32,849 nt of DNA. It comes from a virus. Lineage: Duplodnaviria; Heunggongvirae; Uroviricota; Caudoviricetes. The stretch covers positions 1 to 32,849 of IMG/VR virus record IMGVR_UViG_2778261588_000008; one strand, given 5' to 3'. Position 1 is the stretch's first letter. Every line of letters begins with the position of its first letter. The notes under the pieces are model-generated. The model had not been told where the DNA came from. It worked only from the letters and a program-made list of their open reading frames with translations, and searched no databases. The position numbers and the translations under genes were made by a program. This document shows positions 2,451 to 7,985 of the stretch, one piece after another.

Positions 2451-3278
2451 TTATTTAATCTGGATAAATGGTGTATTGGCACCACTGGTCATGTATTGCG
2501 GCAGTGTACCGTTCCACTTGTTGATGGCTTCCAGCTCCATGACGCCTGGGTTCTGGCGTAGAGCTTCGCCGCGTAAACGAATGGCATCGGCTTCTGCCTG
2601 GGCTTTTGTTCGAATGGCATCAGCCTGTCCGGCAGCTTCCGCACGTAGCATGTTGGCCTCCGCTTCACGTTGCTTGACTTCCTGCTCGCGCTGCAGGGTT
2701 TTCTGGTTTGCCGTGACTTTGGCGTTAATGCTGTCGATAACGGTTGGAGGGTATTCCGGTTTACCTACATAAGAGAGGCTCATTACCTGAATGCCGATGG
2801 GTGTCATCTCTTCCTGAATGTCTTTAAGTGCGGCATCCAGTAGTTCAGACTTGCCACCGTCGATAAATTTGTCAGTGGTCATTTTGCTGGCCAGCCGATT
2901 GAGTGCGTCGGCAATTTTCTGGCGCAGGTCAGTGTCGGTAATGTCATCCACGCCTTTGCGGTAGGTCTGAAACACCGTGGTAACTTTGGATGGATCAACT
3001 TTGTAGGCCACACCGATGTGATAGCCGATGGTTGTACCGTCACTCATCTGGAAACTGAACGGTTCATCGTAGGTCTTCATTTGTTTGAAGGTGGGGAAGA
3101 TATAAACTTCAGTATTCCAGCCAGTCCAGTAGCGACCAACACCGACCACCTCACCGACACCTTTGTCGTCGCCTAGTTTATTTACCTTGATGCCAACATT
3201 ACCTGGTTCAACGCGATCGCAACCGACAAGGCCAATAGTCGGCAGAACAATGGCTAAAGCAAAAATAATTTTTTTCAT
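2451..3278 (-). CDS. SPFH/band-7 (stomatin/prohibitin/HflK-C-like) lipoprotein
   Basis: 275 aa; N-terminal signal with lipobox LVGC; central SPFH-like region followed by Ala/Glu/Arg/Gln-rich coiled coil (REQEVKQREAEANMLRAEAAGQADAIRTKAQAEADAIRLRGEA) typical of band-7 proteins; SD AAGGA 7 nt before ATG; start overlaps stop of upstream small membrane ORF. Confidence 0.8.
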   Translation of the reverse strand: MKKIIFALAIVLPTIGLVGCDRVEPGNVGIKVNKLGDDKGVGEVVGVGRYWTGWNTEVYIFPTFKQMKTYDEPFSFQMSDGTTIGYHIGVAYKVDPSKVTTVFQTYRKGVDDITDTDLRQKIADALNRLASKMTTDKFIDGGKSELLDAALKDIQEEMTPIGIQVMSLSYVGKPEYPPTVIDSINAKVTANQKTLQREQEVKQREAEANMLRAEAAGQADAIRTKAQAEADAIRLRGEALRQNPGVMELEAINKWNGTLPQYMTSGANTPFIQIK

Positions 3279-3463
3279 CTTTTATCCTTAGTGAAAGAAA
3301 GACCCTTGTAAATGGCATAAATGCAGGGCGGGGTCAGAAACGCCAGTGCAAAGCCAGAAATAACTGCTATCGTATCCTTCATGGATATAAGGAACGGAAC
3401 GAATAATCCGTAAATGCATGCGATAATTGCCAGTAAAATTACTATTTTGAAATACAGTCTCAT
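3275..3463 (-). CDS. small membrane protein (62 aa, 2 predicted TM helices)
   Basis: Hydrophobic ORF; stop overlaps start of the SPFH gene (ATGA-type coupling), as in SPFH + small membrane partner pairs. Confidence 0.55.
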   Translation of the reverse strand: MRLYFKIVILLAIIACIYGLFVPFLISMKDTIAVISGFALAFLTPPCIYAIYKGLSFTKDKR

Positions 3464-3486: not shown

Positions 3487-3594
3487 TTAACCGACTGACA
3501 GCGCAATAAAGAGAATAATGATTTCAGTTAGTGTCAGCACTGTGGCAAGGATTAAAATCAGTTTTACTCTGTTTAATTCACGGTTGCTTTTCAT
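3487..3594 (-). CDS. possible membrane micro-protein (35 aa)
   Basis: Hand-translated MKSNRELNRVKLILILATVLTLTEIIILFIALSVG; single predicted TM helix; no convincing SD, so low confidence. Confidence 0.25.
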   Translation of the reverse strand: MKSNRELNRVKLILILATVLTLTEIIILFIALSVG

Positions 3595-3639: not shown

Positions 3640-4221
3640 TTAATGTGTCACTGGCGCTTCTGGCATACCATGAGTATTCAGGTCGTTAATCATTTCATCC
3701 AGAAGGAGTTCAAGCCCTTCGCGCCCCATAGCAGAGAGAATGAAACCATTATCAGGATCTGCGATGAGCATTTTTTGATAGAGAAACAGAACTCGCCCCA
3801 TGCCTTCAGTTTCGCCATATTTTTCAATAAATCCCCATTCGACATGGTTTTGCAGGGCAATGCGAAGTGGTCCTGGGTATATACTCATGCAACCATGTTT
3901 CCCCTTATAAATAACTGCGCGATCTGTCGTCCCGTTATCGTTAGGGATATCAATAGTGCCGTTCTTGTTTTCCTCTTCACTGATAAACGTTGCCACATAC
4001 AGCCAGCGCCATTGAGCAACCTTCATATCGACTGAAAATCTTCCCAGGAATCTGGCATCATCGGCTTCAGCAATACATTGCATGATTCTTAAGCCGTGCC
4101 AGTATGGATTGTCGTATTCACCATCATTAAGTCGCTGTACGGCCTCAACATAATCAATGGTTGTATTGTCAATTTTTATGCCATGAGCTGTCGCTTCTGG
4201 TTTGAATTCAAAATTGTTCAT
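3640..4221 (-). CDS. hypothetical protein (193 aa)
   Basis: ORF 3640-4296 trimmed to ATG at 4221 (MNNFEFK) with AAGGAA SD; start overlaps stop of upstream 62-aa ORF. No recognisable motif. Confidence 0.6.
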   Translation of the reverse strand: MNNFEFKPEATAHGIKIDNTTIDYVEAVQRLNDGEYDNPYWHGLRIMQCIAEADDARFLGRFSVDMKVAQWRWLYVATFISEEENKNGTIDIPNDNGTTDRAVIYKGKHGCMSIYPGPLRIALQNHVEWGFIEKYGETEGMGRVLFLYQKMLIADPDNGFILSAMGREGLELLLDEMINDLNTHGMPEAPVTH

Positions 4222-4406
4222 AATGTTTGTTCCTTTGCTGGTGGAATAATCGTGTAACCCGCTCTTTTTGCCATCCACAGAAATGTATCCATGCAACCAA
4301 CGAATTCATTATCCAACAGATGTTTTGAGTAAATTACTTCACCATTTTCAATGGTTAGCAACACTCTTACTTTTTTATGTGTTATGTTCTGTTGTTTTTC
4401 TTTCAT
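4218..4406 (-). CDS. hypothetical protein (62 aa)
   Basis: ATG at 4406 with GGGAGA SD 7 nt upstream; translationally coupled to the 193-aa gene. Confidence 0.5.
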   Translation of the reverse strand: MKEKQQNITHKKVRVLLTIENGEVIYSKHLLDNEFVGCMDTFLWMAKRAGYTIIPPAKEQTL

Positions 4407-4610
4407 TTATTTATCTCCCATATGCTTTGCGCAAATACAGGTTGGCTATATGAAGATAAGAATCTCCATGTTGTGCAATGAGGCAGGCAGTTTTATACGA
4501 TGCCTTATTTTTCAGGAAAGCCATAACATAATCTCCTGCGAATAAAGGTTGCAACAATCCCCGGCGATAAAACCGTAATAAACATTCAGTGAATATTTAT
4601 TGTTATTGCG

Positions 4611-4802
4611 CTAATTCTTTTTGACTGCAGCTTTCGAATATTCACATGCAAAAGACAGGATTTCATCACCTAATGTTTTTGCATTCTGATTATTTGACAT
4701 CTGTAAAACTTGCGCAGCGCACAACAGACTATGAATGTTTATTGCAAATGAATCCGATGCCAGACAAATACCTTCGAAATTGTCATGGATATTACTATTC
4801 AC
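4611..4802 (-). CDS. small protein, stand-alone paralog of the N-terminal domain of the upstream HTH protein
   Basis: 63-aa ORF with GTG start at 4802 and AAGGAG SD 8 nt upstream that overlaps the stop of the 150-aa gene. Shares DSFA(L/I)NI..LL.A......K.LG.E...F..EY..AA with residues ~25-75 of the 150-aa protein. Confidence 0.5.
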   Translation of the reverse strand: MNSNIHDNFEGICLASDSFAINIHSLLCAAQVLQMSNNQNAKTLGDEILSFACEYSKAAVKKN

Positions 4803-4807
4803 TGCTG

Positions 4808-5260
4808 TTACTCCTTTGCAGCATTGCTACCAGTCAATAACCACATCGGATCGCAGCCAAGAATATTTGCCAGTGGGATAAGCATACTGATGGTTGGTTC
4901 ATACTCTCCGCTCTCCCACTGGATGATGATTTCTTCATCAAGAGCGAGCAGCCTGGCGAGTTCGGCTGTTGTTAAGCCGCAGGCTTCGCGTTGGGTGCGA
5001 AGGTTAACCAGCCAGCTTTCAGGGAAGGATTGTTTTTGTTGTGCAGGAGAAGCAGCAGATAGAGCATATTCATGGATAAATTCCATTACCTCAATGCCCA
5101 GTTCCTTTGAGCGAGCACAATCCAGAAGATGGAATGTGCGTACAGCACTTAGCAAATTTGCAATATTTAATGCAAAGGAATCAAGTTCTAAGCCCTTAAG
5201 CGTAACACAGCCGCAGTTGATAAAATTAGTTGTTTCTGGAGTTGCTTTTAGTGTCTTCAT
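4808..5260 (-). CDS. XRE-family HTH DNA-binding protein with N-terminal accessory domain
   Basis: 150 aa; C-terminal HTH_XRE-like segment (GLTTAELARLLALDEEIIIQWESGEYEPTISMLIPLANILG); first gene downstream of a strong leftward promoter; SD GGTGGA. Confidence 0.7.
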   Translation of the reverse strand: MKTLKATPETTNFINCGCVTLKGLELDSFALNIANLLSAVRTFHLLDCARSKELGIEVMEFIHEYALSAASPAQQKQSFPESWLVNLRTQREACGLTTAELARLLALDEEIIIQWESGEYEPTISMLIPLANILGCDPMWLLTGSNAAKE

Positions 5261-5313
5261 ATATCCACCAACAATTTTAAATTGAATTAAATCAAGTTAT
5301 AATTGATGGTGCG

Positions 5314-5342
5314 ATATTATGCTTTGGGAAATAGGCTGTCAA
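5314..5342 (-). promoter_or_regulatory. leftward early promoter (PL analog): TTGACA - 17 bp - TAATAT
   Basis: On minus strand: -35 TTGACA (5342-5337), 17-nt spacer, -10 TAATAT (5319-5314). A 17-bp near-palindrome ATCAAGTTATAATTGAT (5291-5307) sits at the predicted transcription start and is a candidate OL operator. Confidence 0.55.
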
Positions 5343-5372
5343 GAAAAAATTGATATCGTATATTTCAGGCAG

Positions 5373-5405: not shown

Positions 5406-6095
5406 CTAACCAAATCTGTTTATGTTGAATGGTACTGATGAGATCACTTTAGACTGGATATAAAGCAGAGCTAACCCCTCTTTTTCGATGCTCCATGGTT
5501 GATAATTGGGGTTATCAGATAACACCATGATTTTGCTTCCAATTTTTTGAAGCCTTTTCACGTAGCATTCTCCATCAAAACAAAATGCATAAATACCATC
5601 GCCATCAAAATAAGTTACTGTCTTATCAAGAAAAAGAAGGTCGCCAGGTGAGATTGTGGGAGCCATACTGTCTCCTCTGGCGTTACCTATTTCTATATTT
5701 TTGAATGCCCGATTTCCAACAAGACGTCGGGCATATTCAGGATCAAGTTCTATTGAGCGCACTACATCTATCAAGTCACCACGGACATGAGTTCCATCAC
5801 CGCAACTAAACTCAACATCAAGGACATTAAACACGACGCTATCTGTTCTTGTCTGGTGTTTCTCTTGCGAGGAAAAGGTTGGTGAGGAGTCTTCACCTAA
5901 GAACCAGGATTGTGGATAACCGCTAATCTCTGATAAATGCGCGAGCTTATCACTCCGTGGAAATGTTTTTCCTGTTGTCCAGTACTGCACTGATTGCGCA
6001 CTCACACCTAACTTGCGGGCCAGTTGAGCCTGAGTCCATCCTTTTGCTTTCAGCATCGCGGCTATTCGATTTTCCGTGTTTTTGACGTTCTTCAT
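5406..6095 (-). CDS. cI: CI-type prophage repressor (N-terminal HTH + C-terminal S24/LexA-like autopeptidase)
   Basis: 229 aa; N-terminal HTH (GWTQAQLARKLGVSAQSVQYW); C-terminal G-D-S-M (Ser nucleophile) and downstream Lys in YVKRL, as in lambda CI/LexA; divergent from cro-like gene. Confidence 0.9.
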   Translation of the reverse strand: MKNVKNTENRIAAMLKAKGWTQAQLARKLGVSAQSVQYWTTGKTFPRSDKLAHLSEISGYPQSWFLGEDSSPTFSSQEKHQTRTDSVVFNVLDVEFSCGDGTHVRGDLIDVVRSIELDPEYARRLVGNRAFKNIEIGNARGDSMAPTISPGDLLFLDKTVTYFDGDGIYAFCFDGECYVKRLQKIGSKIMVLSDNPNYQPWSIEKEGLALLYIQSKVISSVPFNINRFG

Positions 6096-6228
6096 GACCA
6101 GGTCCTGTGGGTTTCTTTACAAGGATAAATCTTTACTTGATTTTAGTGTATTCGATCCTTTTGCAACTTGCATGTTAATTTAATCTTGATGTATTCTTGT
6201 GTTATCAAGTTAATATTGGTGTTTTGCT
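6096..6228. promoter_or_regulatory. divergent immunity control region (OR / PRM / PR analog)
   Basis: 133-bp intergenic region between divergent cI and cro. Repeated half-site CTTGAT/ATCAAG (6136-6141, 6185-6190, 6204-6209); 17-mer ATCAAGTTAATATTGGT (6204-6220) matches the OL 17-mer at 13/17; candidate PR TTGCAT-18-TATTCT. Confidence 0.5.
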
Positions 6229-6528
6229 ATGAAAGGAAATGATTACGACGTACTTCGCGCATTAATTGCGCAAAATGCCATTGCACGAAACCTTGGTGTA
6301 ACTCCGCAAGCGGTGAATCAGTGGTTTTCAAAAAACACAATTCCTGCTCGTTTTGTTTTACGCGTATGTGAAGTAGTTGCATGGAAGGTCACGCCACATG
6401 GCTTAAGGCCAGATCTTTATCCTCACCCTGAAGATGGAATTCCTGATTCGTTACGCAAAATTTCAAATCCAAGCCTAGCGCGCACGGAAGATGGGCAGAG
6501 TGATTCATCAGAAATGTCCACGCGATGA
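6229..6528 (+). CDS. cro: Cro-like HTH regulator (YdaS/Cro family)
   Basis: 99 aa; HTH with GVTPQAVNQW signature of Cro/YdaS-type proteins; divergently arranged with cI. Weak SD, short leader. Confidence 0.7.
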   Translation: MKGNDYDVLRALIAQNAIARNLGVTPQAVNQWFSKNTIPARFVLRVCEVVAWKVTPHGLRPDLYPHPEDGIPDSLRKISNPSLARTEDGQSDSSEMSTR

Positions 6529-6604
6529 ACGGTTACTGAACGAAAAAAGAAAAGCCGGGCCGCACTCCGTCAGCCCGACTTATTCTGATTAGTAAGGGGA
6601 TTTC

Positions 6605-7459
6605 ATGATGATCAATAAACAAAAAATAGTCAACCCTGAAAACTTGCCAGTTATTGAGTGGCAGGGAGTACGTGTAGTTACCACCGAAACGTTGGCGGCG
6701 GGATATGGAACAACGCCAATCCGTATACAACAGAACTACATTCGAAACGAAGATCGTTTCGTTGAGGGTAAACACTTTTTCAAAATCAGCGGTGATGAGC
6801 TGAAATCTTTCCGACTATCTTTTAGCGAGTCGGTTAATAAACATACAACATCACTTGTCCTCTGGACAGAACGCGGCGCTGCCCGCATGTCAAAAATCGT
6901 CGATACAGACGAGGCCTGGTCGTTCTTCGAAAAAATGGAGCAGGCGTATTTTCGTAAAGCAACGCCTTCTTCAAACACTATTCCAGACTTTGACGATCCG
7001 ATCGCTGCTGCTGAAGCGTGGATTGAAGCCAAAAAATCCGAACGCCTTGCTCTCGGGTATGCAGAGCGTCAGGCTCGCTACATCAGCAAACTCGAAAGCC
7101 ATCTCGCCGATGGCATCACTCCTGTGCAGTTCTGCAAACAACTCAACGGTGTAAACACTCGTCAGATTAATGCGTTCCTTGAAGAGCGTAACTGGCTGTA
7201 TGACGACCGTCCGGAGGCTATGTATCCGCGCTGGCGTGTAAAAGCGTATGCACGTGACCAATACCTGACTGAGCGTTCTGGGCAGGTTGAGCAGGAAAAC
7301 GGGGAAATGCGCGAGATTTTCAAACCACTCCTGAAGAAAAAAGGTGCCGCCTGGTTATATCGCCATTATCTGAACGGTGAACTACCGATGAAGAAAACAT
7401 GGGATGGGCTGTTTACCCATAACACTGAGCTCGCGAATCTTTTACAGGAGAACAAATAA
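6605..7459 (+). CDS. phage antirepressor-like protein (ORF6N-type N-terminal domain)
   Basis: 284 aa; AAGGGG SD; N-terminal VVTTETLAAGYGTTPIRIQQNYIRNEDRFVEGKHFFKISGDEL resembles ORF6N/antirepressor DNA-binding domains; C-terminal domain unassigned. Confidence 0.6.
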   Translation: MMINKQKIVNPENLPVIEWQGVRVVTTETLAAGYGTTPIRIQQNYIRNEDRFVEGKHFFKISGDELKSFRLSFSESVNKHTTSLVLWTERGAARMSKIVDTDEAWSFFEKMEQAYFRKATPSSNTIPDFDDPIAAAEAWIEAKKSERLALGYAERQARYISKLESHLADGITPVQFCKQLNGVNTRQINAFLEERNWLYDDRPEAMYPRWRVKAYARDQYLTERSGQVEQENGEMREIFKPLLKKKGAAWLYRHYLNGELPMKKTWDGLFTHNTELANLLQENK

Positions 7460-7668: not shown

Positions 7669-7793
7669 CGGCGAGTAGGTACAAAATGATCCGCAACCAA
7701 CATATTGATTCTGCACTTTTGGGACGTTACACTGTCTCTGCACCTTATAAAGCGGGGGCCGGGCGTGGAAACCCGAAATTCAATATAGAGCAC

Positions 7794-7815
7794 AACCGCG
7801 CTCATGCGGTTTTTT
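7794..7815 (+). terminator. candidate intrinsic terminator between lar and rha
   Basis: AACCGC-GCTCAT-GCGGTT hairpin followed by T-run (7810-7815). Confidence 0.35.
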
Positions 7816-7985
7816 CGTGTCATGAGCATCGTTACGCCCAAATTATGGTGGGGCGTGCAGGGCCAACTTCGGTTGGGCCGGGTTCTATGTTGACCGGTAT
7901 TTCCACCCCTGTACGTCTCACCACCTATATGGTCGTGGAAAGCCTTGGTGGTGAGTTCATTGAATTCAACATAGGGGCTGTCACC

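Follow-up and report, generated by a model that had tools for sequence, protein, structure and literature searches.

Two independently evolving accessory genes of a phiP27-like prophage, one of which ends in a conserved histidine tail that may engage the Lon protease

The locus described here raises the question of what two overlapping phage genes do and whether they do it together. It lies in a 32,849-nucleotide stretch of viral DNA (IMG/VR record IMGVR_UViG_2778261588_000008; the window, hereafter), where genes for proteins of 62 and 193 residues (p62 and p193) are read leftward and overlap by four nucleotides. An earlier note had described them as a translationally coupled early pair with good Shine-Dalgarno sequences and proposed a host-takeover or anti-defence role. 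Both open reading frames and both ribosome-binding sites are found as that note described them, and RefSeq agrees:

4218-4406, minus strand: p62, the 62-residue gene (ATG 4406-4404, stop TGA 4220-4218; RefSeq CDS WP_000660644.1; phrog_340 member)
3640-4221, minus strand: p193, the 193-residue gene (ATG 4221-4219, stop TAA 3642-3640; RefSeq WP_053289839.1; phrog_1515 member)
4218-4221, minus strand: ATGA overlap of the p193 start codon with the p62 stop codon, read from the sequence
4415-4419, minus strand: Shine-Dalgarno sequence GGGAG of p62, 8 nt 5' of the ATG, read from the sequence
4231-4235, minus strand: Shine-Dalgarno sequence AAGGA of p193, 9 nt 5' of the ATG and within the end of p62, read from the sequence

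Both are genuine conserved genes. The RefSeq boundaries on the chromosome of E. coli UTAK-5, which is 100% identical over the region, coincide with those given here; the open reading frame listing also offers a 218-residue p193 frame from an upstream TTG, the RefSeq start being ATG 4221, which yields 193 residues. Pairwise dN/dS values are low (0.28 and 0.17 for p193, 0.05 and 0.22 for p62), indicating that both genes are protein-coding and under purifying selection, and profile matches in other genera, with E values of 1e-50 to 1e-100, lie far beyond those of chance open reading frames.

The window represents a phiP27-like E. coli prophage inserted beside mlrA; the element in UTAK-5 is a prophage that likewise adjoins mlrA. 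Among phages the nearest match is phiP27, which carries Shiga toxin (94% nucleotide identity) and whose L06 and L07 are direct orthologues of p193 (89% amino-acid identity) and p62 (98%), the phiP27 annotation giving longer versions of both. The gene region is found in 168 of 5,426 complete E. coli genomes and many Shiga-toxin-converting phages carry relatives of the genes; knowledge of what the genes do would help to explain induction and host takeover by prophages of this kind. By exhaustive profile search the p193 family comprises 129 clusters at 50% identity, nearly all of them stand-alone proteins of 190-215 residues, and its genomic and phage matches are almost entirely to prophages of Enterobacterales (Escherichia, Citrobacter, Klebsiella, Rahnella, Yersinia, Phytobacter, Raoultella and Providencia); Aeromonas and Elizabethkingia appear as host names in two phage records. 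Wherever the neighbourhood of p193 was inspected, the gene was part of the operon leading from the repressor towards xis and int. Matches to p193 in plasmids were considered as evidence for a mobile module and rejected, these being mostly non-mobilizable records of 37-41 kb that are most likely excised prophages. The p62 family is larger (499 homologs), and the 120 relatives listed are all stand-alone proteins of 60-110 residues, nearly all from Enterobacteriaceae. A literature search on the accession numbers, locus tags and PHROG identifiers of the two genes found no paper.

The leftward gene order is HTH gene, 63-residue ORF, p37, p62, p193, two small membrane ORFs, SPFH gene, DUF5406, DUF4222, xis and int. 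The neighbouring genes and candidate control signals are:

6204-6220: palindrome copy related to that at 5291-5307, in the cI/cro intergenic region
5406-6095, minus strand: S24-type repressor gene
5394-5378, minus strand: terminator-like hairpin after the repressor gene
5339-5354: related palindrome copy, overlapping the -35 element of the leftward promoter-like site
5314-5342, minus strand: promoter-like site TTGACA-17-TAATAT, putative pL analogue heading the leftward operon (consensus scan, 10 of 12 matches; a consensus match only)
5291-5307: operator-like palindrome ATCAAGTTATAATTGAT, immediately past the -10 hexamer (in repeat families D1 and D2)
4808-5260, minus strand: HTH gene, 150 residues, the first gene downstream of the promoter-like site
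4611-4802, minus strand: 63-residue ORF, in an otherwise unannotated 400-nt gap
4411-4524, minus strand: p37, a 37-residue ORF unannotated in RefSeq, directly upstream of p62 in the same operon
3487-3594, minus strand: 35-residue hydrophobic ORF unannotated in RefSeq, between the p193 and SPFH genes, 88-94% conserved in relatives
3275-3463, minus strand: 62-residue hydrophobic membrane ORF, between the p193 and SPFH genes
2451-3278, minus strand: SPFH (Band-7) lipoprotein gene

The position assigned to the two genes in the earlier note, between an HTH pair (4808-5260 and 5406-6095) and the SPFH gene (2451-3278), is thus correct, and its description of a leftward early operon is consistent with the promoter-like site at 5342-5314 and the cI/cro-region palindromes that flank it. 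The palindrome copies are 16-17 bp in length and of the ATCAAG-N5-ATTGAT type, with three occurrences of the core motif TWACTTGATWW in the window where 0.11 would be expected, and those at 5291-5307, 5339-5354 and 6204-6220 are probably repressor operators. A promoter-like site bracketed by cI/cro-type palindromes fits a repressor-controlled early operon; a sequence scan found no terminator-like site within the minus-strand run, and the consensus scan found no promoter-like site directly upstream of p62 or p193. From sequence motifs and gene order alone we infer that the leftward operon is under repressor control from a pL-type promoter, and that p62 and p193 would be expressed early.

Two of the small ORFs in this interval merit description in their own right. 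The p37 protein has the sequence MAFLKNKASYKTACLIAQHGDSYLHIANLYLRKAYGR, and its frame ends 4 nt before the p62 start; tblastn finds homologs of 42-92% identity at the equivalent relative position in the P27, Citrobacter, Phytobacter, Klebsiella, Fels-1 and CwR94 loci, and its dN/dS is 0.10. The 63-residue ORF at 4611-4802 shares 39% identity over 46 residues with the N-terminal part of the adjacent 150-residue HTH protein, of which it may be a truncated paralogue.

Searches of Pfam, NCBIfam, PADLOC and PDB sequences with p62 and p193 as single proteins returned no match above threshold, and family profiles of the two searched against curated libraries likewise gave none, in keeping with the earlier observation that neither protein contains a recognisable motif. 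p193 matches phrog_1515 over its full length (residues 1-193, E = 8e-92), 42 of 42 divergent relatives also match this family, and p62 matches phrog_340 over residues 2-61 (E = 3.2e-24); the entries for these two families carry no functional information. Profile-profile comparison indicates that the p62 and p193 families are unrelated, and no paralogue of either protein is encoded in the window. p62 is predicted to be a small beta-hairpin-plus-helix protein, the AF2 model (pLDDT 84.5) containing strands at residues 14-20 and 23-30 and a helix at 39-48. p193 is a soluble, acidic alpha/beta protein with no membrane segment, for which no fold relative was found among the solved structures of the PDB and no enzyme-like signature was detected by domain or profile searches. 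It carries a net charge of -13 over 193 residues (pI 4.78), and the acidity of the family as a whole (pI 4.4-5.7 in 38 of 42 members) argues against DNA binding. Among 42 relatives, some just 20-25% identical, the near-invariant positions are G34, D37, R72, W73, G88, R120, E128, Y148, G166 and H193, of which D37, R72, W73, R120, E128 and Y148 could form a catalytic site of unrecognised type.

Several names attached to relatives in databases were considered and set aside. DUF905, the UniRef name of one p62 homolog, corresponds to a Pfam model without a match up to E = 5 in P0248, in nine other relatives or in the window protein. A relation of p62 to "anti-repressor" families was likewise not borne out: the PHROG matches are weak (E = 0.004-0.06) and to C-terminal parts of those proteins and the listed p62 relatives are stand-alone, and the window's own antirepressor-like genes give no match to p62. 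The names "2-polyprenylphenol hydrolase", given to p193 homologs in Klebsiella phages, and "serine protease", given to the SPFH gene of a Klebsiella phage, are flagged here as wrong, the former receiving no support from profile searches and the latter product being an SPFH/Band_7 protein.

On alignment of the family, the most conserved feature of p193 is its C-terminal tail, which appears to be flexible and ends in histidine:

3643-3669, minus strand: codons for the p193 tail GMPEAPVTH-COOH, a candidate Lon H-degron (family conservation and model)

The tail consensus is G-[LIMV]-P-x-x-P-[VT]-[IAMLT]-H-COOH (in short, G-Φ-P-x-x-P-[V/T]-x-His-COOH). A terminal histidine is present in 56 of 65 full-length cluster representatives at 50% identity, 49 of the 65 fitting [VTIAL]-x-H; with close relatives counted as well, 94 of 114 end in histidine, and most of the exceptions are frameshifted or truncated. 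Within the 56 His-ended tails, the residue at position -2 is V or T in 44, and that at -1 is I, A, M or L in 33; the window protein ends P-V-T-H, placing a polar threonine in the penultimate position. The last helix of the p193 model ends at residue 184 and residues 190-193 have pLDDT values below 50, so that the C-terminus is predicted to be accessible and unstructured. As no downstream gene overlaps the p193 stop codon, overlap constraint is not the reason for the conservation of the tail. The widespread E. coli Stx1a/Stx2a-phage lineage (P0021, P0023 and P0024; L006-L008 5001-5573) ends in ...HGMPEGQ, without P-V-x-His, indicating that the tail is dispensable there and providing a naturally occurring tail-less form for comparison.

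A C-terminal histidine in such a context recalls the Lon H-degron, x-[L/I]-[L/I/V]-H-COOH, described in a 2025 study as a widespread signal with an invariant terminal histidine preceded by two hydrophobic residues, in which some variation is tolerated (PMC11986505). Published examples end in FTVH, VTLH, PIIH and, in SulA, YLYH, and substitution of the histidine by aspartate drastically reduces degradation (PMC11986505); LarA and HspQ bind Lon and regulate it allosterically through C-terminal sequences of this kind (PMC10665427). p193 resembles the H-degron carriers SulA, Smg and Yersinia Y0596 and Y2853, and the regulators HspQ and LarA, in possessing a presumably exposed [V/T/hydrophobic]-x-His-COOH end that is conserved across a divergent family, but its fold is unrelated to theirs, its invariant P-x-x-P lies outside the published motif, and its penultimate residue is threonine. 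Phage proteins that target Lon are represented by T7 gp4.5 and T4 PinA (PMC10286901), and lambda CIII, a product of the pL operon, is both inhibitor and substrate of FtsH (PMC1838920). The likeness of p193 to these early phage proteins acting on a host AAA+ protease is one of analogy only; CIII is encoded in an operon equivalent to that of p193.

The conserved His-ended tail, taken together with the published H-degron, leads us to propose p193 as a short-lived early protein that may engage Lon. In full, the account that we favour, though tentatively and with somewhat less than even confidence, is that p62 and p193 are independent accessory genes of a repressor-controlled leftward early operon ending in xis and int, and that p193 is a binding-type protein docked on Lon through its tail. 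The tail would dock the protein onto the host protease, whilst the folded acidic body would act by binding a host or phage partner. In the simplest version p193 would be a Lon substrate, its level low and transient after induction, as with SulA; in a less likely version it would compete for Lon or modulate it, compare CIII with FtsH and HspQ and LarA with Lon. p62 would have a separate role, as a member of the wider enterobacterial prophage family phrog_340, and the ATGA overlap would reflect the tight gene packing of the operon rather than a two-subunit system. The degron likeness is compatible with a tightly limited, host-directed early function for p193, and the conserved terminal histidine would predict either Lon-dependent turnover or Lon modulation. 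Several points weigh against engagement of Lon, however: p193 has no experimental or homology link to the protease and a three-residue resemblance is weak; the polar threonine precedes the histidine in the window tail and the invariant prolines fall outside the published degron; the Stx-phage lineage of P0021, P0023 and P0024 dispenses with the terminal histidine; and this residue may serve a different purpose, as part of a binding or active site or as a contact for some other partner. The conserved His-ended tail, the Lon hypothesis and the p193 model without a solved structural relative are new here.

The role originally put forward for the two genes, host takeover or anti-defence, would have one or both proteins bind directly to RecBCD, FtsZ, a restriction enzyme or another defence protein, with the p193 tail forming part of the interaction surface. 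It draws on the sequence motifs that place the genes in a repressor-controlled early leftward operon, on the left-operon annotation, which contains no Gam or Red-type recombination genes and so leaves such functions unassigned, and on p193 itself, which lacks an enzyme signature and is acidic, as are many phage inhibitor proteins. By position and presumed regulation p62 and p193 indeed resemble the accessory genes of the lambda pL operon and b region (Gam, Kil, CIII, Ral, SieB and ea), sharing a place between repressor and xis/int, a seemingly repressor-controlled promoter and the character of small, packed genes exchanged as a mosaic, but they are sequence or fold kin to none of them in searches of Pfam, PHROGs with an assigned function and the PDB. 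Neither protein is similar in sequence or fold to any known inhibitor, and sequence and fold searches yielded no link to Gam, Kil, Ral, RecBCD, FtsZ or restriction enzymes; we regard direct inhibition of such a target as fairly unlikely. The DNA mimics Ocr and ArdA are far more negative than p193, and the more specific idea that p193 is a DNA-mimic anti-restriction protein of that type was rejected given its moderate charge (-13, pI 4.78) and the absence of a sequence or fold match to them.

A bolder form of the Lon proposal would make p193 the first of a new family of phage Lon modulators, an abundant early protein whose H-degron occupies Lon or allosterically reprogrammes it and whose fold has no solved relative. 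Were this so, phage proteins or host antitoxins would be stabilised and toxin-antitoxin-based abortive infection would be blunted. We consider this reading quite improbable.

The overlap of the two genes also suggests a two-component module, whether toxin-antitoxin, toxin-immunity pair or heteromeric complex, in which p62 would neutralise or assist p193. Type II toxin-antitoxin modules classically place a small gene first, in overlap with the larger gene that follows, and p62 and p193 share with such modules their adjacency, common strand and ATGA overlap; a p62-like gene is, moreover, present in 32 of the 36 phage records with p193, a co-occurrence confounded by phage kinship. Unlike those modules, however, the two genes lack recognised domains (no toxin, antitoxin or defence-protein match was obtained for either protein in Pfam, NCBIfam or PADLOC) and lack an autonomous context, no promoter-like site being found directly 5' of the pair and the p193 family occurring at this operon position only, in prophages or prophage-sized circular records. 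Nor are they inherited as a unit, the upstream partner of p193 varying by genus. Adjacency of p62 and p193 is confined to Escherichia phages. In Citrobacter a 140-residue gene, itself ATGA-coupled to p193, intervenes between the small gene and p193, and the gene that precedes p193 in Citrobacter and Phytobacter encodes 137-140 residues and overlaps or abuts the p193 start. Several genes separate p62 from p193 in Klebsiella phages, where the SPFH gene overlaps the annotated p193 start; in Rahnella the p62 homolog lies 1.4 kb upstream and a different 73-residue gene provides the overlap; and in Providencia an antirepressor-like gene abuts p193. With a broadened profile no p62 homolog was found within 5 kb of p193 in Yersinia, Phytobacter, CwR94 or Providencia, and none is present within that distance in 4-5 of the 9 loci outside Escherichia, whilst Fels-1 has the small gene and no p193 match.

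In E. coli, Citrobacter, Phytobacter, Klebsiella, Rahnella and Providencia alike, the p193 start thus overlaps or abuts whatever gene lies upstream, and coupling to such varying genes is a general property of a tightly packed operon and no sign of partnership. p62 and p193 are not an obligate pair; they are accessory genes that evolve independently. The ATGA overlap reported in the earlier note is plainly present at 4221-4218, but the functional pairing built upon it does not survive, the small gene being missing or separated in most loci outside Escherichia, and a misleading assumption is thereby removed. That the genes nonetheless form a two-component module is, in our judgement, very unlikely.

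We give a similarly slim chance to expression of the genes in the lysogen, where they would serve the host through superinfection exclusion or defence rather than lytic growth. Temperate phages frequently keep lysogenic-conversion or exclusion genes between int and the repressor gene, and the SPFH and membrane genes close by could suit such a function. PADLOC, however, gives no matches, the sole promoter-like site that heads the operon is bracketed by operator-like palindromes, and none lies directly 5' of p62 or p193.

HflK and HflC are SPFH-family proteins. Least persuasive, and hardly probable, is that p193 works with the neighbouring membrane module of small transmembrane protein and SPFH/Band-7 lipoprotein, perhaps in membrane-protease control of the kind exerted by FtsH-HflKC (FtsH and HflKC act as a complex when lambda chooses between lysis and lysogeny; PMC1838920). 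In its favour, the module stays adjacent to p193 in two arrangements, closely following it in E. coli P27-like phages and directly preceding and overlapping it in Klebsiella phages. Against it, p193 has no membrane segment, and the Citrobacter, Rahnella, Yersinia, Phytobacter, CwR94, Raoultella and Providencia loci have no SPFH gene less than 5 kb from p193.

Some further features of the neighbourhood were recorded. In Klebsiella phage ST512-KPC3phi13.5 (L018) the gene at 5462-6912 named "serine protease" encodes an SPFH/Band_7 protein 85% identical to that of the window and directly precedes a mis-annotated p193 homolog, the order of SPFH module and p193 being inverted relative to E. coli; the 62-residue membrane ORF (3275-3463 in the window) accompanies the SPFH gene in Klebsiella phages. 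In many lineages outside the P27 group the immediate neighbour of p193 is an antirepressor-like gene, a commoner neighbour than p62. A conserved gene of 177-200 residues (e.g. MIIQSKLIRAALVCAAKNDVRYYLNGVHITP...) is found just downstream of p193, directly or past one gene, in Citrobacter, CwR94 and Providencia prophages; it is absent from the window, and its single member from L003 gave no Pfam match. The loci concerned are:

L010 4888-5637, L012 5578-6408, L013 5586-6464, L015 5566-6267 and L017 4270-4968: antirepressor-like neighbours of p193, judged from translated sequences
L018 6921-7628, L020 4091-4834 and L021 4037-4783: antirepressor-like neighbours of p193, with Rha, anti-repressor or ORF6N annotations
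L003 5590-6192, L010 5634-6200, L014 5569-6147, L015 6267-6854 and L017 5553-6086: the 177-200-residue gene downstream of p193

The window has an antirepressor-like gene of the Rha family elsewhere, at the start of which two Rfam matches score above their gathering thresholds:

7740-7816, plus strand: isrK (57.7 bits)
7841-7928, plus strand: C4 antisense RNA (82.4 bits)

We take these two matches to suggest P1/P7-type antisense control of the antirepressor.
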